From: Planctomycetota bacterium
Lineage (GTDB): Bacteria; Planctomycetota; UBA1135; UBA2386
Assembly (NCBI GenBank): GCA_046290465.1
Contig: JBKAGP010000001.1
Span: forward strand, 3,632,270 to 3,696,269
DNA: 64,000 nt
Reading direction: 5' to 3'
Shown: positions 18,792-35,124 of the stretch, one piece after another
Layout: each line of letters begins with the position of its first letter
Position numbering within the stretch: position 1 is the stretch's first letter
Translations under genes and position numbers: made by a program
Notes under the pieces: model-generated
Database searches by the model: none
Told to the model about the DNA's origin: nothing
Seen by the model: the letters and a program-made list of their open reading frames with translations, nothing else

Positions 18792-20221
18792 CACTTCGCC
18801 CCCAGACGGTAAAGGTGGCCGTGCGTGCGGATCCAGACGCTGTCGTCGACCAGCGCGGGCGTCGCGAAGCACTCCTCGCCGAAGTCGGCGCGGTGCAGTT
18901 CTTCGAGGCCGCCGGCGGCGAGCACGGTCAGCACGCCCGATTCCCCGAGCAGGTAGACCTTGCCGTCACCGGCCACCGGTGAGGCGAAGTAGGCGTCGCC
19001 GGCGTCGCCGACGCGCGCCTTGCCGAGCCGCCTGCCGGCGTCGGCCGAGACCGTCGTGACCAGCCCACCCTGATCGCTGGCCAGGTAGTAGACGTTGTCG
19101 AGGACCAGCGGCGACGGCAGCTGCGGGATCGAACGGTAGTAGCGCCACTGCACGGCCTGCTCGGTGCGATCGCCCTCGCCGCCGACGGTGATCGCCATCG
19201 CCGCGTTGACCGACGCGAACGACGCCCGACACAGCCGCCACTCGCCCGCGTCGAGGCCGCCGCTGTGGTCGAGGTCGAGGTACTGGAAGTAGGCCTTCAC
19301 GCGCCGTTCGTCGACCTCGTCGCGACCGAGCGCGCCGTCGCCGTTCGCGTCCATCGCCGCGACCGCGTCGGCGAACTTCGGCAGCTCGATCTGGCGGCCG
19401 CGATCGTTCATCGGGCTGCCGTAGCCGTGGATCCACAGCGTGTCGCCGCGCAGCACCGGCACCGACTTCATCTCGCACGGCAGGCCGCGCACCCACCAGA
19501 CGCGCTCGCCGGTGTCGGCGTCGTAGGCATCGAGCAGGAACGAGCCCGGCAGGATGAACTGCACCGGCTTGCCCTCGGGTCGGTAGACGATCGGCGTGCA
19601 GTGGCCGCTGACGGCATCGGGCCGCGCGACCTTGTAGAGCACTTCCCCGCTGTGCTTGTGCACGCCCAGCACGTAGCTGTCCTTGCCGTCGTCGCACGGC
19701 AGCACCGCGACGTCGCCGACCAGGATCGGCGACGCGCCCATCCCGTAGATGTTGAAGAACGGCCCGAGCGGCTTGCGCCAGCGTTCCTTGCCGTCGTGGT
19801 CGTAGGCGAGCATGCCGTACTCGTCGAAGAACACGACCACGGTGTCGCCGTCGACCGCGGCCGACGCCGCGGCCGGACCGTTCTTGCCGTGGAACTCGGT
19901 GCGACGCGGCCGCGGCGCCTCGCGCCGCCAGACCGTCTCGCCGGTGCGCTTGTCCAGCGCGTAGGTCCACAGCTTGTCGGACTCGACCGCGGTCAGGAAC
20001 ACGCGGTCCGCACTGAACACCGGCGAGCTGTGGCCCGGCGGAAACGCGCGCTTCCAGATCACGCCCTGCTTTGGCCCGATCTCGGCGGCGTAGCTGCCGG
20101 ACGCGGCGAGGCCGGTGCCGTTGGGCCCACGGAATCGGTTCCACGGGGAGGTGGTCGCCTCCTGGGCGAGCAGACCCACCGCGCACAGCGCGGCGACGGC
20201 GAACGAGCGAACGGGCGACAT
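18791..20221 (-). CDS. PQQ-like beta-propeller repeat protein carrying an inserted EF-hand pair
   Basis: Signal peptide plus W-N-R-F-R-G-P. Canonical EF-hand loops DANGDGALGRDE and DLDHSGGLDAGE are inserted between blades. Confidence 0.8.
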   Translation of the reverse strand: MSPVRSFAVAALCAVGLLAQEATTSPWNRFRGPNGTGLAASGSYAAEIGPKQGVIWKRAFPPGHSSPVFSADRVFLTAVESDKLWTYALDKRTGETVWRREAPRPRRTEFHGKNGPAAASAAVDGDTVVVFFDEYGMLAYDHDGKERWRKPLGPFFNIYGMGASPILVGDVAVLPCDDGKDSYVLGVHKHSGEVLYKVARPDAVSGHCTPIVYRPEGKPVQFILPGSFLLDAYDADTGERVWWVRGLPCEMKSVPVLRGDTLWIHGYGSPMNDRGRQIELPKFADAVAAMDANGDGALGRDEVDERRVKAYFQYLDLDHSGGLDAGEWRLCRASFASVNAAMAITVGGEGDRTEQAVQWRYYRSIPQLPSPLVLDNVYYLASDQGGLVTTVSADAGRRLGKARVGDAGDAYFASPVAGDGKVYLLGESGVLTVLAAGGLEELHRADFGEECFATPALVDDSVWIRTHGHLYRLGAK

Positions 20222-20256
20222 GGCCAGATGCTACGGATCCGGCCTGCCGGCGGCGG

Positions 20257-21492
20257 CTACCGTTTCGTCTCGATACGGTACAGGTGCTTCCGCGTGCGCA
20301 GCACCAGCGCGTCCCCGACCACCGCCGGCGACGCCATGAAGCCCGATTCGAGGTGGTTCTCCGCCAGCTCGCGGTATTCGTCCGCCTTCGCCAGCACGAC
20401 GGTGCGCCCCTCGCGGTCGAAGAAGTAGATCCGGTCGCCCACGCACAGCGGCGAACCCGAGTGCTCGCCGCCGAGGCGATGGCGCCACACCGGCTCGCCG
20501 GTCCGGGCGTCGAGGCAGGTCGCGTAGCCGCCGTCGTCGACCATGAAGATGCGGTCCCCGACCAGCAGCGGCGACGGCATCTTGGGCACGTTGCGCCGCC
20601 ACGTCCACGCGACCTTCTCGTCGGTCACGTCGCCGCTGCCCGCGAGCTCGACCGCGTAGAGCTGCGCGCGCATGAACCCCGTCGGGATGTAGACGCGCAC
20701 GCCGTCGGTGAGCGGTCGCGACGCCAGCGAGAAGCCCTTGTAGCGCACGCGCCACAGCTCCTTGCCGGTCTCGAGGTCGTAGGCCATCGCCGCGTGCGCG
20801 CCGGGGCTGAGCAGCACGCGGGTGCCGTCGAGCTCGGTGACGATCGGCGTGCAGTAGGCCTTGCGCAGGTCCTTCTGCATGCTGGCGAGGTCGATCGAAC
20901 GCTCGGTCTTCCAGACGGTCTCGCCGGTGCGCTTGTCGAGCGCGATGACGAACTGCACATCGCCGCCGTCGACGTGGAACGCGAGCAAGTCGTCGACCAG
21001 CACCGGGGACGAGCCCGGCCCTTCCATGTGGTCGCAGTTGATGTCGCGTCGCTGCCAGACCTCGTCGAACGTCTCGGTGTCGATGCACGCCGTGCCATAG
21101 GTGCCGAAGTGCACGTAGACGCGGCCCGGCTCGACGACCGGCGACGGCGACGCGTGGCTGTTGAGCGCGTTCTTCTTGCCGGCCTTCTCGACCTCGAACA
21201 CGACGCGCCGGTGCACGATCTCGCCGCTGTCGGCGTCGACCGCGACGACGTGCATCTTGCGGCCGCCGTCGGTCGCCGTGGTCAGCCAGATGCGCCCGTC
21301 GCAGACCACCGGTGACGACCAGCCCTCGCCGGGGATCGCGACCTTCCAGCGCACGTTCTGCTGCTCGCTCCAGGTCAGCGGCACGTCGGCCGCAGCGACC
21401 ACGCCGTCGCGCTTCGGGCCGCGGAACTCCGGCCAGACGGCCTGGGCGGCGAGCGGGGCCGCGCACGCAGCGAGAACGAGAAGGTTGCGCAT
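20257..21492 (-). CDS. PQQ-like beta-propeller repeat protein
   Basis: Signal peptide MRNLLVLAACAAPLAAQA followed by W-P-E-F-R-G-P-K-R-D-G. Divergent from the next gene across a 67-bp intergenic region. Confidence 0.8.
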   Translation of the reverse strand: MRNLLVLAACAAPLAAQAVWPEFRGPKRDGVVAAADVPLTWSEQQNVRWKVAIPGEGWSSPVVCDGRIWLTTATDGGRKMHVVAVDADSGEIVHRRVVFEVEKAGKKNALNSHASPSPVVEPGRVYVHFGTYGTACIDTETFDEVWQRRDINCDHMEGPGSSPVLVDDLLAFHVDGGDVQFVIALDKRTGETVWKTERSIDLASMQKDLRKAYCTPIVTELDGTRVLLSPGAHAAMAYDLETGKELWRVRYKGFSLASRPLTDGVRVYIPTGFMRAQLYAVELAGSGDVTDEKVAWTWRRNVPKMPSPLLVGDRIFMVDDGGYATCLDARTGEPVWRHRLGGEHSGSPLCVGDRIYFFDREGRTVVLAKADEYRELAENHLESGFMASPAVVGDALVLRTRKHLYRIETKR

Positions 21493-21559
21493 GGCGGGAT
21501 GTTACGGCGGCGTCGAGCAATCCCGCATCCGGACCCGGCGCCGAGACGAAACGGCGACG

Positions 21560-22879
21560 ATGGCCGCCACCCAGCTCCGCATCCTCTCCTTCGTGCTCGC
21601 CACCCTCGCGGCGAACGCAGCCCCCGCCCAGGCCGAATCGGAGGCCAAGGCCCCAACGAAGAACCAGGCCGCTCCGGAGACCCAGGCCGCCCGCCCGGAC
21701 GCGCCGACCGGCGTCTGGAACCAGTGGCGCGGGCCCGACCGCAACGGCCACTGTCCCGGCGACTGGTGGCCCGAGCGGCTGACCGAGCAGCGCGTCGAGC
21801 GGCTGTGGCGGGTCGAGCTCGGCCCGAGCTACTCCGGGCCGGTCGTCGACCGCGACACGGTCTACACCACCGAGACCGTCGACAAGAAGGACGAGGTCGT
21901 GACCGCCTACGACCGCCGCACCGGCAAGCGCAAGTGGCGCACGTCGTGGGCCGGCGCCATGAAGGTGCCGTTCTTCGCGGCCAAAAACGGCTCGTGGATC
22001 CGTTCGACGCCGGCGGTCGACGACGACTCGATCTACGTGGCCGGCATGCTCGACGTGCTGGTCTGCCTCGACAAGGAGACCGGCGAGGAGCGCTGGCGGG
22101 CCGACTTCACCCGGCGCTTCGACGCGCCCAAGCCCGACTTCGGCTTCGTCTGCTCGCCGCTGGTGGTCGGCGACCACGTCTACGTGCAGGCCGGCGCGAG
22201 CTTCGTCAAGGTCGACAAGAAGACCGGCGAGACCGTCTGGCGTTCGATGAAGGACGGCGGCGGCATGTTCGGCAGCGCGTTCAGCTCGCCGACGCTGGCG
22301 ACGATCGCCGGCAAGGAGCAGCTGCTGGTGCAGAGCCGCAACGAGCTGGCCGGCGTCGCCGTCGACGACGGCGAGGTGCTCTGGTCCAAGAAGATCCGCG
22401 CGTTCCGCGGCATGAACATCCTGACGCCGCAGCCCTACAAGGACTCGGTGTTCATCTCGGCCTACGGCGGCCGCGCCCACCGCTTCGACGTGTCGTCGAC
22501 CGACGGCGCGTTCGCGGCCAACGAAGCGTGGAACAACCGCGCCCAGGCCAACATGACCTCGCCGGTCGTCATCGACCACTACGCCTATCTCTACCTGCGC
22601 GCCAAGCGCTTTGCGTGCGTCGACCTCGACAGCGGCGAGGAGGTCTGGCGTTCGAGCGGCATGGCCGACGACTACTGGTCTCTGGTCGCGCAGGGCGAAC
22701 GCATGCTGGCGCTGACCGACGCCGGCGAACTGCACCTGATCCAGCACGATCCCGATGACCTGAAGATCCTCGACACGCTGCAGATCTCCGACGGCAAGAC
22801 CTGGGCACACCTGTGCGTGGACGGCGGCCAGCTGATCGTGCGCGAGCAGGACGGCCTGGCGGCGTGGTCGTGGAAGTAG
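21560..22879 (+). CDS. PQQ-like beta-propeller repeat protein
   Basis: Internal ATG of ORF 21161..22879 giving a signal peptide MAATQLRILSFVLATLAANAAPAQA. W-N-Q-W-R-G-P-D-R-N-G. Confidence 0.8.
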   Translation: MAATQLRILSFVLATLAANAAPAQAESEAKAPTKNQAAPETQAARPDAPTGVWNQWRGPDRNGHCPGDWWPERLTEQRVERLWRVELGPSYSGPVVDRDTVYTTETVDKKDEVVTAYDRRTGKRKWRTSWAGAMKVPFFAAKNGSWIRSTPAVDDDSIYVAGMLDVLVCLDKETGEERWRADFTRRFDAPKPDFGFVCSPLVVGDHVYVQAGASFVKVDKKTGETVWRSMKDGGGMFGSAFSSPTLATIAGKEQLLVQSRNELAGVAVDDGEVLWSKKIRAFRGMNILTPQPYKDSVFISAYGGRAHRFDVSSTDGAFAANEAWNNRAQANMTSPVVIDHYAYLYLRAKRFACVDLDSGEEVWRSSGMADDYWSLVAQGERMLALTDAGELHLIQHDPDDLKILDTLQISDGKTWAHLCVDGGQLIVREQDGLAAWSWK

Positions 22880-23001
22880 CCCGGCCCCACTAGGAGCGCG
22901 TCCATGTAGTGGACGCGCTGCCAACCGTGATCGCGGAAGCGGAGTGTACGCGTGCGAACGGAGCTTTGCCCGCCAGCGATCCGGCCACCCCTGGATCCCA
23001 C

Positions 23002-23078
23002 AAACACCGCATACCGAACCCGGTTCATCCTGCGCCGTTTCACGGCGCAGGATGAACCGGGTTCGGTATGCGGTGTTT
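23002..23078. repeat. REP-like palindromic element, copy A: perfect 36-bp inverted repeat with 5-nt loop
   Basis: aaacaccgcataccgaacccggttcatcctgcgccg-tttca-cggcgcaggatgaaccgggttcggtatgcggtgttt. Intergenic between the beta-propeller gene and the mqnA-like gene. Confidence 0.85.
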
Positions 23079-23175
23079 GCGCCGAACGGGTCTCCGCGGC
23101 GTTGATCGTGCCCTGCGGGGAAACGGGCTTCGCCCGCTAGGCATTCGTCCGCACCGGCTGCATGCTGCTGCCGAC

Positions 23176-23916
23176 GTGAGCATTCGAATCGGCGGAGTCC
23201 CCTATGGTGTCGGCGCGCCCCTGCTGGGCGGCCTCGAGGACGCACCCGGCGTCGAACTGGTGCGAGAGCCGCCGACGGCGATGATCCCGGCGCTGCGCGC
23301 GGGCACGCTGGACGCGGCGCTGCTGTCGTCGGTCGAGGCGATCCGGCACCCCGGCTACACGATCGCCGGCGGACTCGGCATCGCGTGCAAGCGGGAGATC
23401 CGTTCGGTGCGTGCCTTCCGTCGCCGCGGCCGCAAGATCCGGCGCGTCGGCTGCGACCGCAGCTCGGCGACGACCGTGTCGCTGCTGCGCCTGTTGCTGC
23501 AGCACGTGCACCACGCAGAAGTCGACGGCACCCCCGAGTTCGAGACGATCGAGCCGACCCGCGCACCGGACGAACTGCCGCACGACCTGGTGATGCTGAT
23601 CGGCGATCCGGGGCTCGAGGCCGACGCCGGCGACCGCGAGGTCTGGGACCTCGGCACCGAGTGGGTTCGCTGGACCGGCCTGCCGTTCGTGTTCGCCCTG
23701 TGGGTGCTGCGTCCCGGCGTCGACCACGACGCCGTGCTGCCGGTGCTGCAGCGCGCGCGCGAAGTCGGCCGGCAGCGCGGCGCCGTCGACGGCACCGAAG
23801 GTGCCGCCCACTACGAACTCGACGACCAGGACCTGGTCGGCCTGCGCCGCTTCTGGACCGAATGCCGCGCCCTCGGCATCGGCACCGAACCCGACCCCGA
23901 GTTCGTGACCCCCTGA
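23176..23916 (+). CDS. mqnA: MqnA/MqnD-family protein (futalosine-pathway menaquinone biosynthesis, periplasmic-binding-protein fold)
   Basis: GTG start. IRIGGVPYG..GVELV.E.P..M..ALRAGTLDAALLSSVEAIRHPGYTI..GLGIACKREIRSV matches the conserved MqnA layout. No other mqn genes are in the window. Confidence 0.55.
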   Translation: MSIRIGGVPYGVGAPLLGGLEDAPGVELVREPPTAMIPALRAGTLDAALLSSVEAIRHPGYTIAGGLGIACKREIRSVRAFRRRGRKIRRVGCDRSSATTVSLLRLLLQHVHHAEVDGTPEFETIEPTRAPDELPHDLVMLIGDPGLEADAGDREVWDLGTEWVRWTGLPFVFALWVLRPGVDHDAVLPVLQRAREVGRQRGAVDGTEGAAHYELDDQDLVGLRRFWTECRALGIGTEPDPEFVTP

Positions 23917-23952
23917 TTCGTCACCCACCGATTCGTGACCCACTGACGCCGC

Positions 23953-24042
23953 AAACACCGCATACCGAACCCGGTTCAGCCTGCGCCGTGAAACGGCGCA
24001 GGCTGAACCGGGTTCGGTATGCGGTGTCGGTATGCGGTGTCC
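23953..24042. repeat. REP-like palindromic element, copy B (carries T-to-G / A-to-C compensatory pair relative to copy A, plus a 13-nt tandem duplication cggtatgcggtgt)
   Basis: Left arm 23953-23988, loop tgaaa, right arm 23994-24027. The left arm is identical to copy A except ttcaTcc to ttcaGcc, and the change is mirrored in the right arm (gAtgaa to gCtgaa). Confidence 0.85.
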
Positions 24043-24081
24043 GGGGGTGTTCGTGGTGTGGTGGCGGGGTACCGTTCGTGC

Positions 24082-25359
24082 ATGATCTTGCTGCTGGCGG
24101 CCCTGCTTCCGACGATTGCGCCACAAGGGGACGACTGGCCGCAGTGGCGCGGACCGACGCGCGACGGTGTCTGGCGCGAACAGGGCATCGTCGAGCAGCT
24201 GCCCGAACGGCTCTCGCCCCGTTGGCAGGTCGAGATCGGCGCGGGCTACACCGGGCCGACCGTCGCCGACGGCCGCGTCTACGTCATGGATCGGCTCGAC
24301 GAACCCGACGAGGTCGAACGGGTGCACTGCTTTGCCTGGCAGACCGGCGAACCGATCTGGTCGCACAGCTACGCGTGCTCGTATGCAGGGGTCTCCTACA
24401 CGGCGGGGCCGCGCTGCGCCGTGCAGATCTTCGACGGCCTCGCCTACAGCCTCGGCGCCAAGGGCCACCTGCACTGCTTCGACGCGAAGACCGGCGAGGT
24501 CGTGTGGCAGCAGGACCTCGACGCCGCATACACGATCGACCTGCCGATCTGGGGCATCGCCGCGGCACCGGTCGTCGAAGGCGACCTGCTGATCGTGCCC
24601 GCGTGCGGCAAGGACGCCTACCTCGTCGCGTTCGATCGCCGCACCGGCAAACCCCGCTGGGCCGCGCACTCGGACCGCGGCAACTACTCGGCGCCCATCG
24701 TGATCGAACAGGCCGGCAAGCGCCTGCTGGTCTGCTGGTCCGGCGATCGTGTGCTCGCCGTGCATCCGGACACCGGCAAGCTCGCCTGGGAATACCCGCT
24801 GAAGTCGCGCAACATGCCGCTCGGCGTCGCGTCGCCGCTCCTGCACGAGGACTGCCTGTTCCTGACCGGCTTCTACGACGGCTGCGCGCTGCTGCGCCTC
24901 GACCAGGAGAAGCTCGCCGTCGAGGAACTATGGCGCCTGCGCGGCCCGAGCGAGCGCCGCACGCGCGGCCTGCACAGCACGATCTCGACGCCGATCGCGC
25001 TCGGCGGGCACGTCTACGGCGTCGACAGCTACGGCGAACTACGCTGCCTCGCACTCGCCGACGGCAGCCGCGTCTGGGAGGACCGGACCGCCGTGCCGCG
25101 AAGCCGCTGGGCGACGATCCACTTCGTGCGCAACGGCGAACGCATCTGGATGTTCAACGAACGCGGCGAACTGCTGATCGCCCGCCTGTCGCCCGACGGC
25201 TTCGAGGAGATCGACCGCGCAGCGTTGATCTCGCCGACCCGCGGCCAGCTCAACCGCCGCGGTGGAGTCTGCTGGTCCCATCCCGCGTTCGCCTACGGCC
25301 ACGTGTTCGCACGCAACGACGAACGGCTCGTCTGCGCCGACCTGCGACGGGCGAAGTGA
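24082..25359 (+). CDS. PQQ-like beta-propeller repeat protein
   Basis: Start MILLLAALLPTIAPQGDDWPQWRGPTRDG. The ORF-track start at 24019 lies inside repeat copy B and is rejected. Confidence 0.8.
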   Translation: MILLLAALLPTIAPQGDDWPQWRGPTRDGVWREQGIVEQLPERLSPRWQVEIGAGYTGPTVADGRVYVMDRLDEPDEVERVHCFAWQTGEPIWSHSYACSYAGVSYTAGPRCAVQIFDGLAYSLGAKGHLHCFDAKTGEVVWQQDLDAAYTIDLPIWGIAAAPVVEGDLLIVPACGKDAYLVAFDRRTGKPRWAAHSDRGNYSAPIVIEQAGKRLLVCWSGDRVLAVHPDTGKLAWEYPLKSRNMPLGVASPLLHEDCLFLTGFYDGCALLRLDQEKLAVEELWRLRGPSERRTRGLHSTISTPIALGGHVYGVDSYGELRCLALADGSRVWEDRTAVPRSRWATIHFVRNGERIWMFNERGELLIARLSPDGFEEIDRAALISPTRGQLNRRGGVCWSHPAFAYGHVFARNDERLVCADLRRAK

Positions 25360-25408
25360 CGCCATCCCCCGACCCTGCATCGCGGACCCCGATGGCGGGC
25401 ACCGCATG

Positions 25409-25468
25409 AAACACCGCATACCGAACCCGGTTCAGCCTGCGCCGTGAACCGGGTTCGGTATGCGGTGT
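25409..25468. repeat. REP-like palindromic element, copy C (shortened version: the central 10 nt become the loop)
   Basis: aaacaccgcataccgaacccggttca-gcctgcgccg-tgaaccgggttcggtatgcggtgt. Intergenic between two beta-propeller genes. Confidence 0.8.
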
Positions 25469-25556
25469 CCGGCTGCGGCGGGCGTGGTGGGAGGTTGCTG
25501 GTGGCGGATCCGGGTGCGGGGGTGACGGGCGGTGCGGGACCCTGCACGATGGCGGG

Positions 25557-26912
25557 ATGCACACCGCGATGATCGCGTTCGCTCTCTCGTTGGCGGCGCC
25601 GGCGCTGCTTGCGCAGCAGGCGCAGGACCCGGCGGCGACCAGTTGGCCGTCCTACCACGGTGCGTTCGGCCGCGGCGTCGCCGACGGCTTCGCGACGCCG
25701 GTCGAGTGGGACGTCGAGGCGGGCACCAACATCGCCTGGTCGACCAAGATCCCGGGCCTGTCGCACTCGTCGCCGGTCGTCTGGGGTGACAAGGTATTCG
25801 TCAACACGGCGATCAAGGAAGGCGACGACGACGCGGAGCTGCGCGTTGGCCTCTACGGCGACATCAAGTCGGTCGAGGACGACTCGGAGCACGAGTTCCG
25901 GCTGCTGTGCCTCGATCGCAACAGCGGCGCGGTGCTGTGGTCCAAGCTCGTGTGGAAGGGCGTGCCGGCGATCAAGCGGCACCCGAAGGGCTCGCACGCA
26001 GCGTCGACGCCCGCGACCGACGGCGAACGCGTGGCGGTGTTCCACGGCACCGAAGGCCTGCACGTGTTCGACATGCAGGGCGAACTGCTGTGGAAGAAGG
26101 AGTTCGGGGTGCTCGACGCCGGCTTCTTCCGGATGCCGTCGGCGCAGTGGGGCTGGGCCAGTTCGCCGGTGCTGCACGGCGGCCGCGTCTACGTCCAGGC
26201 CGACCACCAGAAGGACAGCTTCGTCGCCGCGTTCGACGCCAAGACCGGCGAGCAGCTCTGGCGCACCGCGCGCGACGAGGTGCCGACCTGGTCGACGCCG
26301 ACCGTGCACATCAGCGAAGGCCGCCGCCAGCTGGTGCTCAACGGCTGGAAGCACATGGGTGGCTACGACCTCGACACCGGCAAGGAACTCTGGTGGCTCG
26401 AAGGCACCGGCGACATCCCGGTGCCGACGCCGGTCGCAGCACATGGACGGATCTTCTTGACCAACGCCCACGGCGGACCTGCGCGCATCCTGGCGATCGC
26501 CGAGGACGCCGAGGGCGAACTGTCGGTCGACGCCGACGGGGAGAACGTCGTCTGGGCAAACCGTCGCTACGGCGCCTACATGCAGTCGCCGTTCGTCTAC
26601 GGCGACGAACTCTACGTGTGCCGGGACAACGGCGTGATCACCTGCTGGGACGCCAAGACCGGCACCCAGCACTACCGCCAGCGGCTGACCGCCGGCGTCG
26701 GCTACACGGCGTCGGGCGTCGCCGCCGACGGCAAGCTCTACTACCCGAGCGAGGAGGGCGTCGTGCACGTCGTCAAGGCCGGCAAGAGCTACCAACTGCT
26801 GGCGACCAACGACCTCGGCGAGACCTGCATGGCGTCGCCCGCGATCTCGCAGGGCATGCTGCTGTTCCGCACCCGCACGCAGCTGATCGCGGTGGCCGCG
26901 CCGAAGAAGTAG
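25557..26912 (+). CDS. PQQ-like beta-propeller repeat protein
   Basis: Signal peptide plus W-P-S-Y-H-G variant. Blades of the form GRVYV..D...AFDAKTGEQLW. Confidence 0.8.
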   Translation: MHTAMIAFALSLAAPALLAQQAQDPAATSWPSYHGAFGRGVADGFATPVEWDVEAGTNIAWSTKIPGLSHSSPVVWGDKVFVNTAIKEGDDDAELRVGLYGDIKSVEDDSEHEFRLLCLDRNSGAVLWSKLVWKGVPAIKRHPKGSHAASTPATDGERVAVFHGTEGLHVFDMQGELLWKKEFGVLDAGFFRMPSAQWGWASSPVLHGGRVYVQADHQKDSFVAAFDAKTGEQLWRTARDEVPTWSTPTVHISEGRRQLVLNGWKHMGGYDLDTGKELWWLEGTGDIPVPTPVAAHGRIFLTNAHGGPARILAIAEDAEGELSVDADGENVVWANRRYGAYMQSPFVYGDELYVCRDNGVITCWDAKTGTQHYRQRLTAGVGYTASGVAADGKLYYPSEEGVVHVVKAGKSYQLLATNDLGETCMASPAISQGMLLFRTRTQLIAVAAPKK

Positions 26913-26967
26913 CGGCGCCCTTACGCAGAGCTGACGCAAGCTCGGGCGCGACGCGTAGCATCGGGAC

Positions 26968-28338
26968 ATGTCGCCCGTGCTGCCCGCCCTGTTCGTCGCC
27001 GCGATGTCCTGCGGCCTGCCGCTCGCCCAGCAAGGCCGGCAGGCGACTCCGGAGAGCCGGCCAGGGCTCGAGGCGCAGCACCAGCGCGGCGACTGGAGCA
27101 GCTGGCGCGGCCCGCTCGGCACCGGCGTGGCGCCGCAGGCCGATCCGCCGATCCAGTGGAGCGAACGGCAGAACGTGCGCTTCAAGGTCGCGGTGCCCGG
27201 CTTCGGCTACGGCACACCGATCGTGCACGGCAACCAGGTCTTCGTGACCGCGGCGGAGCCGTTCGGGCCCGAACTCGCGCCGGTGCCCGACGACGCACCC
27301 GGTGCGCACGACAACGCGCGCGTCACGCAGAAGCACCGCTTCCTGGCGATGGCGTTCGACGCACGCACCGGCGAGCAGCTGTGGCGAACGGACCTGCACC
27401 AACAGCTGCCGCACGCGGGCTTCCACCAGAGCAGCGCGCTCGCAGCGGCGTCGGCGGTGACCGATGGCGAACACGTGTTCGCGTTCTTCGGCTCGTACGG
27501 CCTCTACTGCCTGACGGTCGACGGCGATCTGGTCTGGCAGACCGACCTCGGCGACATGGACATCAAGCACGGCCACGGCGAAGGCGTCACGCCGGTGCTG
27601 CACGGCGACACGCTGGTCGTCAACTGGGACCACGAGGGGCCGTCGTTCGTCGTCGCGTTCGACAAGGCGACCGGCGAGGAGCGCTGGCGCAAGCAGCGCG
27701 ACGAGGTGACCTCGTGGTCGACGCCGATCACCGTCGAGCACGACGGCCGCGTGCAGGTGATCGTCAGCGCGACCGGCGCCGTGCGCGCCTACGACCTCGC
27801 GACCGGCGACGTGATCTGGTCGTGCCGCGGCCTGTCGCACAACGTCGTCGCGTCGCCGGTCGCCGCGGACGGCTTCGTCTACGCGGGCAGCAGCTACGAG
27901 AAGCGGCGCATGTTCGCCGTCGAGCTGCAAGGCGCCAAGGGCGACATCACCAACACCGACAGCGTCGTCTGGCGTCGGCAGCGCGGCACCCCCTACGTGC
28001 CCTCGCCGCTGCTCTACGGTGAGTGGCTCTACTTCCTCAACCACTACCAGGGCTTCCTGGCGCGCGTGCATGCGAGGACCGGACGCGAAGCCCACCGCCC
28101 GATCCGCCTGCCCGGCATGCGCGCGATCTACGCCTCGCCGGTCGGCGCCGCCAACCGGATCTACCTGACCGATCGCGAAGGTGTCACGCTCGTGCTCGCG
28201 CATCCTGCGAACGGCGCCGAGCCCGAGGTGCTGGCGCGCAACGTGCTCGACGACAGCTTCAGCGCGTCGATGGCGGTCGTCGGCGACGCGATCTACCTGC
28301 GCGGCCGGCAGCACCTGTACTGCCTCGCCAGGCCGTAG
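26968..28338 (+). CDS. PQQ-like beta-propeller repeat protein
   Basis: W-S-S-W-R-G-P-L-G-T-G. Closest paralog of the C-terminal half of the gene at 15705..17561 (shared VNWDHEG..FVVA.D..TGE.KW.. blocks). Confidence 0.8.
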   Translation: MSPVLPALFVAAMSCGLPLAQQGRQATPESRPGLEAQHQRGDWSSWRGPLGTGVAPQADPPIQWSERQNVRFKVAVPGFGYGTPIVHGNQVFVTAAEPFGPELAPVPDDAPGAHDNARVTQKHRFLAMAFDARTGEQLWRTDLHQQLPHAGFHQSSALAAASAVTDGEHVFAFFGSYGLYCLTVDGDLVWQTDLGDMDIKHGHGEGVTPVLHGDTLVVNWDHEGPSFVVAFDKATGEERWRKQRDEVTSWSTPITVEHDGRVQVIVSATGAVRAYDLATGDVIWSCRGLSHNVVASPVAADGFVYAGSSYEKRRMFAVELQGAKGDITNTDSVVWRRQRGTPYVPSPLLYGEWLYFLNHYQGFLARVHARTGREAHRPIRLPGMRAIYASPVGAANRIYLTDREGVTLVLAHPANGAEPEVLARNVLDDSFSASMAVVGDAIYLRGRQHLYCLARP

Positions 28339-28355
28339 CGGCGACCGCTACTTCT
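28331..28355 (+). terminator. hairpin GTAGCGG-CGA-CCGCTAC followed by a T-rich tract between convergent genes
   Basis: 7-bp stem immediately after the TAG of the upstream gene, followed by ttcttctc. Confidence 0.4.
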
Positions 28356-30540
28356 TCTCGACACGCTCGAACATGAGCTTCTGGTCCTTGCCGATGCGCA
28401 GCGCAATCGTCTTGGGGCCGGAGGCCGGCGTGATGATCTCGAGGTCGACCGGAATGCCGGAGATCGGGTAGGCGCCGTCCTTCTTCTCGTCGACACAGAC
28501 GCGGTTGCGATCGCCGTCCGGGCCGAACCAGAGCTCGCCGTCCGAGACCGACATCGCGACCTCACGCTCGCCGAGCGGGGTGTTCTTCATGGTCGGCTTG
28601 TAGCGGCCGAGGATCGACGCGAACTCCTTCTTCAGCGCCTCGGTATCGCGCGCGATCTCGGCCGGCGTGCGCATCAGCCGCCGGATGGCGCTCGGCTGCG
28701 CAAACGCGTCGCCGACCTCCACCCACTCGGCCCCCTGCAAGGCCATCACGTGCTCCTGGCCGTCCTCGGCGCGGTAGCGCGTGATGCTCTGCGGTAGCGT
28801 CAGCCCGGAGAGGCGCTGCGAGCCGTGGTAGACCAGCGTCGACCGCCGCGCGCCCTCGGTGCCGCGGAGGCGGCCCGAGTCGACGGCGAAGTAGAACGAA
28901 CGGCTGTCCCCCGCGCTCGACGCGGTGACCTTCCAGCACTCGGTCTCCGCGAACCGCACCGGGCCGGAGGTCTTCGCCCCCTCGGGGCACGTCGGCGCAA
29001 ACAGCTGCGACAGCGGGAACAGCTGCTGCAGCTCGAACCGCTCGTCGCCGGAGACCATGCGCGCGCCCTGCGGTTCGATCGCCCAGCACGAGTCCTGGTC
29101 GCACACGTAGTCGAGGCCTCCCTCGTCGAGATGCTGCACCCACAGGTCCGGCGCGACCAGCGTCATCGTCATCGGCTCCGGCGGCAGCCCGCGCAGCGGG
29201 ATCGCCCAGGTGCCGGTCAGCCGCAGCGCCTTGCCCTCGACCGCGAAGGCGTCGGCGGCAACGGCCGCTGCGTGCTTGTCGAACAGGTCCTTCGCGGCGG
29301 GCGCATCCGCCGCGGCGTCCCCGCCAGCCCCCTTGGCGACGCCACCGCCCCGGTGGTCGAGGCACGCCATGTCGCCAAGGCTGTTGCGCACGTAGATCAG
29401 CCCCCCGACGAACACCGGCATCGTCCAGTAGACGCCGCCCTCGAGCACCTTCTTGCGCGACAGCTCGCGGAACTCGTCCGGGTCCGCCTCGGCGACGATC
29501 AGTTCGCCGTCCGAGTTGAGCACCAGCAGGCGACCGCCTGCCATCGACAGCGAACCGAGACCCAGGCCGCGCACGCGCCACTTCGACTTGCCGTTGCTGT
29601 CGAGGCAGCGGAGCATCGACTCGTCGAAGCCGTAGAGGTGGTCCTCGTGCAGCACGCACGCGGTCACCTTGTTGCGCATGCGCTTGTTCGACCACAGCCG
29701 TTCGGGCTCCTTGTCGTCGCCGAGCCGGATCATCGCCGCGCCCTTGTTGTAGGCCGTCGACAAGAACACGCGATCCTCGCCGACCGCGATCGGCACCGCG
29801 CAGTGCACGGCGCTGCCCATCAGCGGCCACGGGTATTCGTAGAGCACGCGGCCGTCGTCGCGCGCGTGCACGAAGAACGTCGTCGCGCGCATCGCGGCCA
29901 GCGCCGGCGTGCCGCCCACCTCGAGCATCGCGAGGTTGGAGTAGGACGCGTCGCCGAGGTCGTTGGTCTTCCAGATGACGGCGCCGTCCTGCTTGCGCAC
30001 GGCAGCGACGAGGCCGCCGAACTGCAGGTAGATGCGGTCGTTCTCGAGCAGCGGCGACGCCGAGAAGCCGTGGAAGGTCCTCTCGACCTGCCACTCCTTC
30101 GCATAGTCGCGGGTCCAGGCGACCTTGCCGTTGGCGAGGTCGAGCACGTGCAACACGCCGAAGCGGTTGAGGCAGTAGACGCGGCCGTCGTGGATCGTCG
30201 GCGTCGTCAGCGTGCCGCCGCCGTGGTAGCGCGGTTCGTCGGACGAGTCGTATTCGTACTTCCAGAGCCGCTTGCCCGTCTTGGCGTCGAGGCAGAGCAC
30301 GCGATCGACGCCCTCCTTCTCGTGGTAGCCCATCGTGACGAGCTGGCCGCCCACGATCGACGGGCACGAGTAGCCGAGCCCGACGTTGGCGCGCCACAGC
30401 GGCTCGTCCGCGCCGACCGGCGACCAGTCGCGCGCGGCGACGATTGCGGTGCGGTCCGGGCCGCGGTATTCCGGCCAATCGGGACCCTGGGGAGCGGACA
30501 GAACGAGGGCACTGAAGAGGGTGAGCATGGGCCCGCACAT
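28348..30540 (-). CDS. PQQ-like beta-propeller repeat protein fused to a C-terminal domain of about 340 aa with unknown function
   Basis: W-P-E-Y-R-G-P-D-R-T near the N-terminus. Start is ambiguous (ATG 30540 MCGPMLTL.. or ATG 30528 MLTLFSAL..). After about residue 400 the sequence has no propeller motifs. Confidence 0.7.
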   Translation of the reverse strand: MCGPMLTLFSALVLSAPQGPDWPEYRGPDRTAIVAARDWSPVGADEPLWRANVGLGYSCPSIVGGQLVTMGYHEKEGVDRVLCLDAKTGKRLWKYEYDSSDEPRYHGGGTLTTPTIHDGRVYCLNRFGVLHVLDLANGKVAWTRDYAKEWQVERTFHGFSASPLLENDRIYLQFGGLVAAVRKQDGAVIWKTNDLGDASYSNLAMLEVGGTPALAAMRATTFFVHARDDGRVLYEYPWPLMGSAVHCAVPIAVGEDRVFLSTAYNKGAAMIRLGDDKEPERLWSNKRMRNKVTACVLHEDHLYGFDESMLRCLDSNGKSKWRVRGLGLGSLSMAGGRLLVLNSDGELIVAEADPDEFRELSRKKVLEGGVYWTMPVFVGGLIYVRNSLGDMACLDHRGGGVAKGAGGDAAADAPAAKDLFDKHAAAVAADAFAVEGKALRLTGTWAIPLRGLPPEPMTMTLVAPDLWVQHLDEGGLDYVCDQDSCWAIEPQGARMVSGDERFELQQLFPLSQLFAPTCPEGAKTSGPVRFAETECWKVTASSAGDSRSFYFAVDSGRLRGTEGARRSTLVYHGSQRLSGLTLPQSITRYRAEDGQEHVMALQGAEWVEVGDAFAQPSAIRRLMRTPAEIARDTEALKKEFASILGRYKPTMKNTPLGEREVAMSVSDGELWFGPDGDRNRVCVDEKKDGAYPISGIPVDLEIITPASGPKTIALRIGKDQKLMFERVEKK

Positions 30541-30583
30541 GGTAGCCCTGCAGCCGCACACGCGGCTTTCAAAGAGCACGGTG

Positions 30584-30612
30584 TTGACAACAACGACGCA
30601 GCTCGCTATGGT
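30584..30612 (+). promoter_or_regulatory. near-consensus sigma70-type promoter TTGACA-N17-TATGGT
   Basis: TTGACA 30584-30589, 17-nt spacer, TATGGT 30607-30612. Predicted TSS about 30619. Confidence 0.5.
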
Positions 30613-30618
30613 CCCGCG

Positions 30619-30762
30619 CCGCCATGAGCCACCAGTTGCACAACCAGATCGACACGTCGCGCTTTCGCGACCTGAGGTCTACGCACGCGAGCTGATCGAT
30701 CCACGATCGCTCTCGTCACAAAGGCCTCGCCACCGATTGCGGTGCGAGGCCTTTTCGGTTTT
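30619..30762 (+). ncRNA. candidate small transcript of about 140 nt (sRNA or leaderless micro-ORF mRNA) bounded by a promoter and an intrinsic terminator
   Basis: Transcript bracketed by the promoter above and a terminator at 30723-30762. Contains a 23-codon ORF 30624..30695 (MSHQLHNQIDTSRFRDLRSTHAS) starting about 5 nt after the predicted TSS. Confidence 0.3.
30723..30762 (+). terminator. rho-independent terminator
   Basis: GGCCTCGC(C)ACCG-attg-CGGTGCGAGGCC stem of about 12 bp with one bulge, followed by TTTTCGGTTTT. Confidence 0.6.
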
Positions 30763-30943
30763 GGAACCGGCTGCATGGCCGAACCGGCAGTGCGACCCTG
30801 CCACACACGGAAGAAGGAGGACTCCCGATGAACGACATCTGCACCGAACAACTCGTCTGAACGCCGTCCGGCGGCGCGCTCCCGGCCCATCGAGGTTCCG
30901 GCTGCGTGTTCCGCGACACGGGTTCTCACGGCGTCAGATCGCG

Positions 30944-31015
30944 CGTTGCGTAGCTCAATGGTAGAGCACGGGACTGTTGATCCCGGGGTTACGGGTTCGA
31001 ATCCCGTCCAGCCGA
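30944..31015 (+). tRNA. tRNA-like element, Asn(GTT)-like, with non-pairing acceptor stem (possible pseudo-tRNA)
   Basis: Canonical D-arm TAGCTCAATGGTAGAGC, anticodon arm CGGGA-CTGTTGA-TCCCG and T-arm ACGGG-TTCGAAT-CCCGT. The 5' strand cgttgcg pairs with the 3' strand ccagccg at only 3-4 of 7 positions. Position 37 is G rather than A. Confidence 0.4.
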
Positions 31016-31441
31016 GGCACTCGGCACCTCTTGCCCAAAAGGGCGCACCCGACGCGTGTTCCTGCCGGCGTCCGCGCGACGCCGCGACCGCCTGCGAATC
31101 GCTCCCGACGAGCGGCACGCAGGACCGTTCGATCACCTTGCACCATTCGACTCGCGCCGCGGAAGCGGCGCGGCAACGGCACCGTTGTGCGCCCAGGTTG
31201 CGATCCGCGGACCTCTGCGATCCTTCCGAAACGCACGGCGTCGCCCGCACCGCGTCGCGCCGCTTCGCCTGCGCCTGGTCCGTGATCGCGGCGGGGTCGC
31301 TGCGACACGTGGCGCTGGCGGGGCACCTTTCTCGACGTATCCCGACCACTGCATTCCCCCGTCGCCGGCGATCAGGAACGGCGCCTGCGACGGCTCAGCC
31401 TTCACGTTCCAACCAACTCCCCACCTCCGAAGGAGGACCCC

Positions 31442-32560
31442 ATGATCCGCACCTACATCAAGCAGCACGAGATCGGTCTCGTGTTCCGTCGCGGCGACCT
31501 CAGCCGCGTGCTCGAGCCGGGCCGGCACATCCTGCCGGAGCGGCTGCTGCCCGACACCCGCATCGAGAAGCACTCGATGCTCGACACCCGCTTCCGTCAC
31601 GACTCCCTCGACACGCTCGTCGAGAACGAGACCCTGCGTTCGCACCTCGAGATCGTCGATCTCAGCGAGGACGACCGCGCGGTCGTGTGGCGCAACGGCT
31701 GCCTGTACGACTTCGTCGGCTCCGGCCGCTACGCGTATTGGAAGACTCCGCACACGCTGAAGGTCGAGGCCTTCAACGTGGCGGAGGTCGAGTTTCGTCA
31801 CCCGCAGCGCGATGCGATCATGACCATGCCGCAGGCTCCCGAGCACCTGCTCGGGGTCGACGTCGACTCGCACGAGCGCCTGCTCGTGCGGCGCGGCGGC
31901 GAACTGGTCGGGGTCTACGGCGGCGGGCGTCACGCGTTCTGGTCGCGCGGTCGACTGATCACCTGGACGGCCGTGGACATGCGCGAGCAGATCGCGGACG
32001 TCGCCGGACAGGAGATCATGACCGCCGACAAGGTCACGCTGCGACTCAACCTCGTCGTTGCCTGGCGCGTCACCGATCCCGAACGGAGCACCAGCGTCGT
32101 CGACAACGCGGCCGGGGCCGTCTACCGCGAAGCCCAGCTCGCGCTGCGCGCCGCGGTCGGCACCCGCGAACTCGACCGCCTGCTGTCCGACAAGGACAAG
32201 GTGGCCAACGAGGTCCGCGCGTCGATCACGCCGCGAGCGTCCGAGTTCGGCGTCGCGATCGCGTCGGTCGGCATCCGAGACATCGTGCTGCCCGGCGAGA
32301 TGAAGACGATCCTCAACCAGGTCATCGAGGCCGAGAAGAAGGCGGAGGCCAACCTGATCCGTCGTCGCGAAGAGACCGCGGCGGCGCGCAGCCAGGCCAA
32401 CACCGCCAAGCTGCTGGCCGAACACCCCGTCCTGCTCCGCATGAAGGAGCTCGAGTCGCTCGAAGCGATCCTGCGCGACGCGCGCACGACCTTCGTGTTC
32501 GGCTCGGGTGACATCACGCGACAGGTGAAGAGCCTGATCGCCTCCGGCGAACAGGAATGA
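31442..32560 (+). CDS. SPFH / band-7 (stomatin/HflC-like) domain protein
   Basis: Strong SD aaggagga. The SPFH core shows the IRDIVLPGEM..ILNQVIEAEKKAEANLIRRRE pattern followed by a coiled-coil tail. Confidence 0.8.
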   Translation: MIRTYIKQHEIGLVFRRGDLSRVLEPGRHILPERLLPDTRIEKHSMLDTRFRHDSLDTLVENETLRSHLEIVDLSEDDRAVVWRNGCLYDFVGSGRYAYWKTPHTLKVEAFNVAEVEFRHPQRDAIMTMPQAPEHLLGVDVDSHERLLVRRGGELVGVYGGGRHAFWSRGRLITWTAVDMREQIADVAGQEIMTADKVTLRLNLVVAWRVTDPERSTSVVDNAAGAVYREAQLALRAAVGTRELDRLLSDKDKVANEVRASITPRASEFGVAIASVGIRDIVLPGEMKTILNQVIEAEKKAEANLIRRREETAAARSQANTAKLLAEHPVLLRMKELESLEAILRDARTTFVFGSGDITRQVKSLIASGEQE

Positions 32561-32761
32561 CCGGACCACCCGGTCCGCGCGTCCTCGGCGGCATCCGTCG
32601 CCGGGGACGCGTCCCATCGCCGTACCGAGTCGTTTTCCGGTGACAGGAACGCGCGCGGTCCGTTCACAGCGCACTGCCGCCGAGCGACCCGCCGACCCCA
32701 CGGCTCGCCACGTGCACACGGCCGGATGGCTGCCTCCATCCGGACCCAAGGAAGAAAGAGC

Positions 32762-33919
32762 ATGAGCAAGGCCCACATCGCAATCATCTGTGCCATCGGT
32801 CTGTCCGCAGGTCCGTTCGCGACCTGCATCGCACAGCAGCCCCATGGCATGGCGGCCGACGGCATGGCGGCGTTCGCCGAGCTGTCGCCGGCCCGGCAGA
32901 AGAAGCTCGTAAAGGAGATGCGGCTCGCCGCGGACGCGATCGAGCACGTCGCGTTCGACGCGCAGCGGGAGCTGCTCGCCCAACTGCGGAAGGCGAAGCT
33001 CGCCAACCAGAAGAGCAAGCTCGGCAAGACCAAGGAGTCGAAGAAGCCAGCACCCAAGGCCCCCGCGAGCTGGCAGCTGCCGGCCGTCGTCACCTACCGC
33101 TACGGCTTGGCCCGGATCGAGCCGGTGCTGCGAACGGGCGGTCGCAACGCGCTCAAGGCCGCCGAACTGCGCGTGCCGACCGAGCTGTTGCTGCTCGGCA
33201 TGCTGCCGGACGCGGACCTGGTCGTCGCCGAACTTCAGCGCCAGATGGACGGCGACCGGTCGGCCGACCCGTTCATGCGCTTCCTCGAGCTGTGGCGCAA
33301 CGGCGACGAGAGCTTCTACCAGGCGCTCGACCGGACCGCCGGCACGCAGGACAGCGTGTTCTTCTACGACGTGATGCTCGGCGACTACGTCAAGAGCTTC
33401 GGCAAGGGCAAGAGCGCCGCCGCCAAGCACCTCGCGAGCAGCCTCGACGCCGCGCACGATGCGCTGCACGACTCGTTCTTGAGCTACCGACAGTACCGGG
33501 CGTTCCGCGAGGCCGTCGCGCTGTCGCTGGTGCTGCCGCCGGACGTGCAACTGCCGGCGCGGCTACGCCGCTACGAGACCGCCGCCGAAGGCCTCTACTC
33601 GCTGCGCGACCAGGTGCAGATGGTGCTCGCCGCCAACGACCACGACCCGCGCGCCGTCACCACGCTGGTGCGCGAGACCGCCCCGCCGCTGCCGGACCCG
33701 CTGTGGTCGAGCAGCTACAACCCCTACGACGGCTGGACCAAGGTCTTCCAACGCGCGATGCCCAAGATGATCGCCGACAGCGGCAGCACCGACGCGTTCT
33801 TGGCGAAGGCCAGCAAGCAGGCGACCGAACGCGCGACGACCGTGCGCAACGCAGCACGCGCCGCGCTCGGCCTGCCGACCGGCGAACCCCGCCACCTCGG
33901 CGGCGCGGCCCCGCAATAG
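32762..33919 (+). CDS. hypothetical secreted protein
   Basis: SD ggaagaaagag. Signal peptide MSKAHIAIICAIGLSAGPFATCIAQ. No recognisable domain. Confidence 0.55.
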   Translation: MSKAHIAIICAIGLSAGPFATCIAQQPHGMAADGMAAFAELSPARQKKLVKEMRLAADAIEHVAFDAQRELLAQLRKAKLANQKSKLGKTKESKKPAPKAPASWQLPAVVTYRYGLARIEPVLRTGGRNALKAAELRVPTELLLLGMLPDADLVVAELQRQMDGDRSADPFMRFLELWRNGDESFYQALDRTAGTQDSVFFYDVMLGDYVKSFGKGKSAAAKHLASSLDAAHDALHDSFLSYRQYRAFREAVALSLVLPPDVQLPARLRRYETAAEGLYSLRDQVQMVLAANDHDPRAVTTLVRETAPPLPDPLWSSSYNPYDGWTKVFQRAMPKMIADSGSTDAFLAKASKQATERATTVRNAARAALGLPTGEPRHLGGAAPQ

Positions 33920-33955
33920 ACCCTCCGACGACGACCGCGGCCCTCAAGAACGAGC

Positions 33956-33991
33956 AAACACCGCATACCGAACCGGGTTCATCCTGCGCCG
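33956..33991. repeat. REP-like palindromic element, copy D (left arm only, right arm degenerate)
   Basis: aaacaccgcataccgaac(-)cgggttcatcctgcgccg with no intact partner arm. Lies between convergent genes. Confidence 0.7.
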
Positions 33992-34032
33992 TGAACGGCG
34001 CGGCGGCAGCGGTCGTTGGGCTGGGGGCGCGG

Positions 34033-35124
34033 CTAGGGGGACGTTCGGTTTGCGGGCCGGCACGTCGACAACGCGTAGAGAACCACCAATGCGAGCAGGC
34101 TGACGACGGCGACCTTGCCGGCGAGGGCAGGGCCGCCAGCCGCGGCGGCCTTGGCCGGCGCTGCGGCGAGGCCGAGCGTGTGGGCCAGCGCACCGCCGGC
34201 CATCAGGCCCGCGACGCCGACGAACGCATCGCCGTTGCCTTCGCCGGTCAGCACGATCAGGCGCACCGGGCAGCCCCCGCAGAGCGCGCCGCACAGGCCG
34301 ACCAGCATCAATCCGAGCAGGTTCCAGAGCCAGACGCCGTGGGCGACCGGCGCGTCGAAGCCGAACGTGAAGCGACCGCCGACCAGGGCGACGAGCGCGT
34401 AGGTGCCGACCATCGCCCCCGCCGCGACCAGCATCGAACGGCGACCGCCGAACACCTGCCGCATCGCGGAGATGCCACAGAACCCGGTCGCCGACAGGAT
34501 CGCGCCGGCCACACCGCCGATCGCGAGCGCCCACAGCCACGGAGCATGGCCGGGCGGACCACCGACGCCGGGACCGGGGCCGGCGAGCACGTCCGTCGCC
34601 ACGAACACCACCAGCAGCCCGACGCACGCGATCGGACCGAGCAGCCCGACCCCGAGCGGCACTTCGTGGGTCTTCCCGATCGAGTAGCCGCGCGCCTCGA
34701 ACCCCATCGCGATCCGCACGCCGAGGCCGAAGCCCGGCAGCGCGAGCCAGGCGTTGAGGTCGCCGCCACCGAGCCGCTGGAACAGCCGGAACGGACAGCC
34801 GAGGAACACCAGCGCGCCGACGGCCATCGCCGCCGCCAGCAGGAACCGCGCCACCGCGTTGGATCCCGAGCGACCGACGTGGCGCCCGCTCACCAGACAG
34901 AACAACAGTGCGCCGAGCACGACGCCGGGCACCTCCGGCCGCAGGATCGATGGCCCTTGGTGCAGGCCGAGCGCACCGGCGACGTCACGTGCGAAGCAGG
35001 CACCGCACAGCCCCATGTTCCCCGGGTTGCCCAACAGCACGAGCGCCGCCGCGAGCGCGCCGACCACCGCCATCAGCAGGACGCCCGCGGTTCGGCGGGC
35101 CGGAGTCACTTCGCCACGTAGCAT
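34033..35124 (-). CDS. YeeE/YedE-family inner-membrane protein (putative sulfur- or selenium-compound transporter)
   Basis: Polytopic Gly/Ala-rich membrane protein whose two halves each carry a conserved Cys in a G..G.C context (NMGLCGAC.., LCGALCGGCPVRL). Start may be the internal ATG at 35073. Confidence 0.45.
   Translation of the reverse strand: MLRGEVTPARRTAGVLLMAVVGALAAALVLLGNPGNMGLCGACFARDVAGALGLHQGPSILRPEVPGVVLGALLFCLVSGRHVGRSGSNAVARFLLAAAMAVGALVFLGCPFRLFQRLGGGDLNAWLALPGFGLGVRIAMGFEARGYSIGKTHEVPLGVGLLGPIACVGLLVVFVATDVLAGPGPGVGGPPGHAPWLWALAIGGVAGAILSATGFCGISAMRQVFGGRRSMLVAAGAMVGTYALVALVGGRFTFGFDAPVAHGVWLWNLLGLMLVGLCGALCGGCPVRLIVLTGEGNGDAFVGVAGLMAGGALAHTLGLAAAPAKAAAAGGPALAGKVAVVSLLALVVLYALSTCRPANRTSP

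Follow-up and report, generated by a model that had tools for sequence, protein, structure and literature searches.

In Pseudomonas fluorescens SBW25, REPs (repetitive extragenic palindromes) occur as hairpin doublets, the REPINs, in which compensatory changes are common (PMC3116915, Bertels & Rainey 2011). A single REP measures 20-40 bp and consists of a 5-13-bp stem, a 2-20-nt loop and an unpaired GTAG or CGTC tag; the number of REPs differs from strain to strain, most of them sit downstream of coding sequence, and they occur in Planctomycetes (PMC3733652, Di Nocera et al. 2013). The TIRYT families and TIRtrons of S. maltophilia and R. baltica are terminal inverted repeat (TIR) families with RAYT-like tyrosine transposases, some of them self-complementary and dimeric (PMC3733652). 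In E. coli, template switching at quasipalindromes makes the two arms perfect, or more nearly so, without any selection (PMC7202029, Klaric, Perr & Lovett 2020). Here we describe palindromic repeats about 80 bp long that form a dispersed family, with copies A to D at four intergenic sites of a 64-kb stretch of DNA (the window) from a 6.59-Mb metagenome-assembled genome of an uncultured marine Planctomycetota. We favor, with a probability of roughly 0.6, the reading that this is a young palindromic repeat of the REPIN/MITE-like kind, non-coding, restricted to one lineage and selfish or neutral in its behavior. To our knowledge, intergenic repeats of this palindromic type, familiar from Proteobacteria, have hardly been described in Planctomycetota and never in uncultured marine lineages.

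The original prediction of a dispersed ~80-bp palindromic family at four loci was confirmed by searches with patterns of the arm and of its core. The 36-nt arm AAACACCGCATACCGAACCCGGTTCA(T/G)CCTGCGCCG gave 6 matches in the window at ≤3 mismatches and the 23-nt core of the arm gave 7, against 0 for either in shuffled sequences, and an nhmmer profile of the arms found no further diverged copies in the 64 kb. The full unit is 79 bp long, with two 38-nt arms (CAAACACCGCATACCGAACCCGGTTCATCCTGCGCCGT) and a 3-nt centre. Copy A had been described as a perfect 36/36 inverted repeat; it is indeed perfect, but slightly longer (Table 1). Each arm contains an 11-nt mini-palindrome, GAACCCGGTTC (GAACC-C-GGTTC, 5 bp and a 1-nt centre), which cannot fold by itself. 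The copies fall into two sub-types, the T variant (A and D) and the G variant (B and C). In copy B the outer end of the right arm has 2 mismatches, and a 13-nt tandem duplication (CGGTATGCGGTGT x2, 24015-24040) at the right end is missing from the relatives and so is specific to the window. What is left of copy D is its left arm, the centre and, of the right arm, 6 nt. The peptide by which the repeat had been said to stand out in the open reading frame (ORF) track turned out to fuse two reading frames, HTEPGS(S/A)CAV and (D/A)EPGSVCGV. The copies are clustered: an 11-kb part of the 64 kb holds all four (p ~0.018), and three fall within 2.5 kb (p ~0.017).

Table 1. Repeat copies, genes and flanking features in the window. 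Gene order was derived from third-codon-position G+C (GC3) analysis plus Pfam.
Feature	Position	Strand	Description
Copy A	23001-23079	.	T variant, full length; perfect 38+38 inverted repeat, centre TTC
Copy B	23952-24042	.	G variant, centre GAA; 35/35 perfect arms (23955-24027)
Copy C	25409-25468	.	G variant; inner right arm minus 15 nt, 24-bp outer stem left
Copy D	33956-34022	.	decayed T variant; left arm intact (33956-33991), 15-nt deletion as in C, scrambled right arm
PQQ_2 propeller gene	20257-21492	-	GC3 + Pfam
PQQ1 propeller gene	ends 22879		upstream neighbour of copy A; GC3 + Pfam
mqnA	23176-23916		between copies A and B; GC3 + Pfam
PQQ2 propeller gene	24082-25359		between copies B and C; GC3 + Pfam
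PQQ3 propeller gene	25557-26912		after copy C; GC3 + Pfam
PQQ4 propeller gene	26968-28338		GC3 + Pfam
Propeller gene	28348-30678	-	GC3 + Pfam
tRNA, slipin gene, hypothetical gene (in this order)	hypothetical gene ends 33919		after the minus-strand propeller gene of 28348-30678
YedE-family gene	34033-35124	-	GC3 + Pfam
83-nt insertion/deletion difference	22890-22972	.	beside copy A; window only, absent from L011, L012 and L013
15-nt mqnA 3' end with stop codon, tandem x3 (TTCGTGACCCCCTGA)	23902-23946	+	adjoins copy B on its left
G-rich right flank of copy C	25469-25556	+	includes GCTGGTGG at 25497-25504

The window was compared with contigs of 97-99% nucleotide identity from TARA (L011 and L018) and JGI (L012, L013 and L017), with Logan contigs of about 87% identity (L014-16) and with a contig of about 83% identity (L003). 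Seven distinct full-length copies from the four loci of the window and its relatives were aligned, and pairs were counted on the hairpin. No unpaired cell was found in 35 of the 38 stem pairs, fraying being confined to the outer three positions. Two internal positions vary and in both of them the two sides have changed together: position 28/52 is T:A in A and D and G:C in B and C, and position 21/59 is C:G, or G:C in D, a change that amounts to an inversion of the centre of the 11-nt mini-palindrome in each arm. There were no uncompensated internal positions. The T-to-G change of the left arm of copy B, said to be mirrored in its right arm, was found as described, and with the relatives added the compensation is stronger than the original prediction knew, at two internal positions. 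It is nevertheless no proof of selection for the hairpin, as had been proposed, or for RNA pairing, since template switching can perfect the arms of an unselected quasipalindrome (PMC7202029) and two of the four copies in the window no longer pair. Quasipalindrome template switching explains the compensated stems, the inverted centres and the duplication, deletion and scrambled arm of the window's copies as well as hairpin selection does. For comparative studies of RNA this is a warning: where the repeat is a DNA palindrome, compensated changes in its stem do not testify to RNA-level selection.

The main rival explanation, which we regard as unlikely, is that the copies are functional RNA hairpins kept by selection. 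Transcribed with the 3' end of the preceding gene, they would terminate or attenuate transcription without a U-tract, be processed by RNase III or block 3' exonucleases, and so set the relative expression of mqnA and the propeller genes. A perfect 38-bp RNA hairpin between cistrons, if transcribed, would be expected to be an RNase III substrate or an exonuclease barrier. All copies start 36-122 nt past a stop codon, A lying 122 nt behind PQQ1 and 97 nt ahead of mqnA, B 36 nt behind mqnA and about 40 nt ahead of PQQ2, and C 50 nt behind PQQ2 and 88 nt ahead of PQQ3, all in co-directional gaps, with D in the 113-nt convergent gap between the hypothetical gene and the YedE-family gene. No copy lies in a divergent gap, so that the predicted restriction to short co-directional or convergent intergenic gaps holds for all four; four copies are too few to show a positional bias. 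The predicted RNA folds of A, B and C are extremely stable, at -50 to -89 kcal/mol with z of -8 to -15 (A -80.6 kcal/mol, z -15.5; B -88.7, z -13.0; C -50.5, z -8.1), and the DNA folds are consistent with them (-55.3 kcal/mol for copy A). The stem changes are compensated, and substitutions are rarer in the stems than in the rest of the intergenic DNA: in a comparison of the window with L011 we counted 1.0% in stems (2/196), 4.6% in non-element intergenic DNA (16/348) and 1.2% in coding sequence (Fisher p = 0.025 for stems versus other intergenic DNA), both stem substitutions being at outermost positions. The remaining evidence points away from an RNA function. A scan of 20000-36000 for intrinsic terminators listed none of the four sites, and the stems are followed by GCGCC, CCGGG or CCGGC, with no T-run and hence no U-tract after any of them. 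The same gene order is found in element-free relatives with gaps of 8-44 nt (95 nt at the site of A in L003). Pairing is lost in two of the four copies of this genome, with seemingly intact flanking genes, and the RNA fold of D is no better than that of shuffles (z +0.6). Thirty-eight perfect pairs far exceed the need of any known terminator or REP stem, and both internal compensations are transversion pairs without a G-U intermediate, a pattern to be expected of templating rather than of RNA-level selection. In Rfam searches only tRNAs of the window reached gathering scores, and at E <= 10 the element sites matched only miRNA-precursor models, far below threshold, as generic long hairpins do.

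Structural change between closely related strains is concentrated at the elements, and they differ mainly in structure, with about eight structural differences and two point substitutions between the window and its relatives. The central triplet at locus A is TTC in the window and L011 and GAA in L012 and L013; at locus B it is GAA in the window and TTC in L011-13; at locus D it is GAA-type in the window and TTC in L017 and L018. Since flipping a palindrome yields its own reverse complement, an assembly built with short k may give the centre the wrong orientation; the states were concordant between L012 and L013 and between L017 and L018. Copies C and D of the window share the same 15-nt deletion (CCG^TTTCACGGCGCAGGM^TGAAC), which is slippage between TGAA repeats present in only one of the two centre states. 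The metagenome contigs L012, L013 and L017 end at or within palindromes. Two Logan contigs of 924-935 nt span A to B only, and the 282-aa MqnA (P0246/P0247) encoded there starts inside the right arm of A. The contig ends and the extended MqnA indicate that the elements fragment assemblies and create false N-terminal extensions; in practical terms, they break short-read metagenome assemblies exactly at these gaps.

Copies B and C share their sub-type and flank PQQ2 in direct orientation. In L012, mqnA is followed by a G-type element and then by 12 nt of the right flank of C (CCGGCTGCGGCG), after which the contig ends (10851-10863); L017, from the same JGI sample, begins 48 nt ahead of PQQ3 (L017 1-50). 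The 90% protein cluster of PQQ2 has no JGI member; those of MqnA, PQQ3, PQQ4, slipin, the hypothetical protein and YedE do. On the simplest reading, which we find somewhat the better supported of the two, recombination between B and C removed PQQ2 from the JGI population, the alternative being an assembly artefact across a repeat of about 78 nt. The presence of PQQ2 is variable beyond this population: L003, with 8 nt between mqnA and PQQ3 (3978-3987), has no orthologue of it, and both the TARA relative and a contig with an 81% identical PQQ2 (the 81% relative) have the gene.

The same data bear on the idea that the repeats are recombination sites bounding mobile gene units, either like integron attC sites or as a composite flanked by miniature inverted-repeat transposable elements (MITEs), with B, PQQ2 and C forming a cassette. 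The direct orientation of B and C, the missing PQQ2 of L003 and the B-left/C-right junction of L012 with its PQQ2-free JGI populations would all fit. We consider this quite improbable, since in the 81% relative PQQ2 has the same neighbours and the gaps beside it, of 44 and 40 nt, leave no space for elements, so that the gene is ancestral there and the elements came later; insertion of B, PQQ2 and C as a cassette, suggested by L003, was rejected on this ground. The flanked genes, including mqnA between A and B, are syntenic in relatives without elements. No integrase was found in the window, and the elements have no R/L boxes (RYYYAAC ... GTTRRRY) and no extrahelical bases, their arms being perfectly paired and symmetric. 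The proposal that the repeats act as recombination sites thus finds some support in the L012 junction and the missing JGI PQQ2 protein, in the direction of gene loss and not of expansion. That they drove the expansion of the propeller paralogs is contradicted by the divergence of these paralogs, described below, and by the element-free PQQ2 of the 81% relative.

A comparison with related genomes, as the original prediction had called for, bears on the age of the family. All four orthologous sites are occupied by the element across the 97-99% contigs. Copy A has orthologues in L011, L012 and L013, and so does copy B, without the 13-nt duplication and with an inverted centre; copy C is full length in L011 (2911-2989), as is copy D in L017 (8447-8525) and L018, where it forms a perfect palindrome. 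The element is absent from the site of A in the ~87% relatives and from L003, which has the order PQQm-PQQ1-mqnA-PQQ3-PQQ4 with gaps of 95, 8 and 27 nt. In the 81% relative the two gaps flanking PQQ2 are too short for an element, and the more distant loci L001 and L008 have neither a long hairpin nor an arm match. By parsimony, the family was probably gained recently, in a shallow lineage that includes the window, after its split from the ~87% relatives. In the ~87% relatives an extra 167-aa ORF with no significant Pfam match (L014 9402-9905, minus strand) occupies the PQQ1-mqnA gap, the site of copy A in the lineage of the window.

Three of the copies adjoin paralogous PQQ_2 propeller genes, and they could in principle be remnants of shared 3' flanks that were passively duplicated together with these genes. 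The propeller paralogs are only 22-35% identical in protein and the element copies are 97-100% identical, which argues that the copies were not duplicated along with the genes, and co-duplication was rejected on this mismatch. In addition, B follows mqnA, D follows an unrelated gene, and relatives with the same paralogs have no elements, all of which makes this explanation highly implausible.

Searches of larger collections did not extend the family. The exact 23-mer had 0 matches in each of GTDB species genomes, JGI metagenomes and IMG/VR, in scans that are known to miss positives. These negatives carry little weight, because the exact 23-mer is present in the JGI contigs L012, L013 and L017, which lie outside the scanned JGI set. 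No match was found in plasmid and phage collections. A gapped outer-arm (TIR-pair) pattern run over GTDB genomes had as its sole match a 57-nt hairpin downstream of a gene of Umezawaea endophytica (L009, 7879-7935), which shares only the outer 12-13 nt CACCGCATACCG and was judged to be due to chance. The inner-stem pattern had one match in JGI metagenomes; it lies in a coding sequence that, by its translation as read by eye, resembles a reverse transcriptase, and it was judged in the same way. The three-frame translation of the element gave no candidate among 5.8 billion cluster representatives, a census of low power since N-terminal extensions through elements are hidden within clusters, as for P0246/P0247.

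The data establish the anatomy of the element, its distribution among relatives, the rearrangements between strains and the compensated variants; its mode of spread, the part of templating and any effect on RNA are inferred. If the family is indeed a young selfish or neutral repeat, it would have entered the intergenic DNA of a marine Planctomycetota lineage after the ~87% split and reached at least four nearby sites. Its spread may have been due to a trans-acting hairpin-specific enzyme of the HUH/RAYT type or to template-switch copying. At replication, the arms would template each other by quasipalindrome template switching and a change in one arm would be copied to the other; such templating may be the cause of the perfect arms. 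By the same route the centre would come to differ in orientation from strain to strain, and the copies would tend to suffer duplications and deletions through slippage. The direct-orientation copies B and C would serve as recombination substrates able to remove the gene between them. We found no evidence that the host needs the element.

Several observations weigh against this interpretation. The stems have changed less than other intergenic DNA, which fits purifying selection too. Both the inverted centres and the B/C hybrid junction were read from short-read metagenome assemblies, which are poor on palindromes and repeats. Neither the 64-kb window nor about 60 kb of the relatives' loci contained a transposase or RAYT-like gene, and neither a target-site duplication nor a conserved target is visible. 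Only four loci are known, all within 11 kb, and the family may be a local oddity that spread through conversion or template switching and not a genome-wide mobile element; with the copies so close together, local copying without a transposase may have produced them. At the other extreme, the palindromes could be the substrates of an active hairpin- or cruciform-processing enzyme (HUH/RAYT-like or resolvase-type) that copies them to new sites and often flips the centre. We hold this to be improbable; if true, TTC/GAA would be a reversible switch, and a planctomycete-specific mobile hairpin system would be remodelling operons and deleting or shuffling propeller paralogs between strains. The interpretation as a young selfish or neutral repeat makes the locus useful in two respects. 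It offers an early-stage family, gained in one shallow lineage, with near-identical copies that can be compared across strains at four orthologous sites. It is also a natural record of what happens to long perfect palindromes, namely centre inversion, arm-to-arm correction, recurrent slippage deletions and the probable deletion of a gene between copies.

The window has a G+C content of 69.5% and its MqnA is 100% identical to MFN3242671.1. The proteins MFN3242671-78 are numbered consecutively in the source annotation, so that no gene is annotated in the element gaps. The gene upstream of copy A had been taken to end at 22758, and its end was corrected to the position in Table 1. The family had also been described as confined to the beta-propeller array; this does not hold for copy D, which lies about 3.3 kb past the last propeller gene. 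Two unrelated imperfect hairpins, with 24-nt arms (88% complementary) and 32-nt arms (75%), are found at 58802-58854 and 39273-39352 and are not members of the family. A gene for a HipA-like kinase toxin (HipA_C + Couple_hipA) is located at 37276-38517, and its orthologue in L017 is preceded by a small helix-turn-helix gene.

The triplicated 15-nt end of mqnA to the left of B is also present in L011-L013, with variant units reordered, and is a single unit in the element-free L014. The right flank of C ends in a direct repeat of the left side of C (GGACCC..CGATGGCGGG, ~25383-25399 and 25536-25555), and about 30 nt of it can be aligned with the flank of A in relatives. The 83-nt segment beside A is bounded by an imperfect 8-nt direct repeat (CCCACTAG / CCCGCCAG) and contains a 10-bp hairpin with a TGTAG loop; the minus strand of 22950-22978 is 90% identical to 29 nt of L014-16 comprising the mqnA stop codon and the next 23 nt. 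Local direct duplications surround A, B and C, and the top 3 of 56 flank-flank matches are between the left and right flank of the same copy, in direct orientation. They were rejected as target-site duplications, their distances being variable and the repeat around A stemming from the window-specific 83-nt difference. A GCTGG(T/G)GG-like motif lies to one side of A, C and D at varying distance, abutting the palindrome in D. A G-rich tail was rejected as an obligatory part of the unit, since its distance from the palindrome is not constant and so sets no boundary for the unit. Of the E. coli Chi octamer GCTGGTGG we counted 10 occurrences in the window versus 2.8 +/- 1.6 in shuffles, the Chi sequence of this phylum being possibly different. 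It is found in the flank of C and in the relatives' flank of A (L011 ~490-497, minus strand), and the flank of D carries GCTGGGGG.

The family was finally compared with the known repeat classes. Bacterial MITEs (Correia/NEMIS, RPE, Nezha) have a target-site duplication, a non-palindromic core and TIRs matching a parent insertion sequence (IS). Like them, the elements are small, non-autonomous and intergenic, have terminal inverted repeats, could be co-transcribed and would fold as RNA. They differ in having no visible target-site duplication (none of the nine full-length copies is bordered at its ends by a common direct repeat of 2-10 nt) and no non-palindromic core, and no TIR match to a parent IS was seen in the plasmid, phage and GTDB searches, which gave nothing beyond the chance-level Umezawaea hairpin. 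With REPs and bacterial interspersed mosaic elements they share the palindrome, the position mostly downstream of coding regions, the strain-variable abundance and the occurrence in Planctomycetes, but the 79-bp unit with its 38-bp stem and 3-nt centre is far from the 20-40 bp of a tagged REP, and the 38-nt arm contains none of GTAG, CTAC, CGTC and GACG. The TIRYT families are likewise longer inverted repeats unrelated to GTAG REPs, and GGGGWSAS-type motifs are found near C (GGGGTGAC) and left of B (GGGGTCAC, minus strand), although the match is weak and the position not fixed. The quasipalindrome hotspots of E. coli, where the nascent strand copies the other arm, predict both compensated changes and centre inversions (PMC7202029); this is a single-locus mutational mechanism, which accounts for the maintenance of the arms and not for the spread of the element.

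The closest resemblance is to REPINs. Missing here are a REP stem-loop in each arm, which holds only the 11-nt mini-palindrome, the GTAG tag, a true spacer (the centre is 3 nt) and a cognate RAYT (Y1/HUH) flanked by repeats, none being found in the 64-kb window or the relatives' loci examined; REPINs also number tens to hundreds per genome, versus the four loci seen here in 64 kb. Both are non-coding extragenic units of about 70-110 nt in which two inverted halves fold into one long hairpin, and in both there are compensatory changes, clusters and decayed singlets, and no target-site duplication. The element is previously undescribed but of an ordinary, hairpin-forming repeat kind, and as a long extragenic hairpin with compensated changes, clustered copies, decaying remnants and no target-site duplication it works most like a REPIN.

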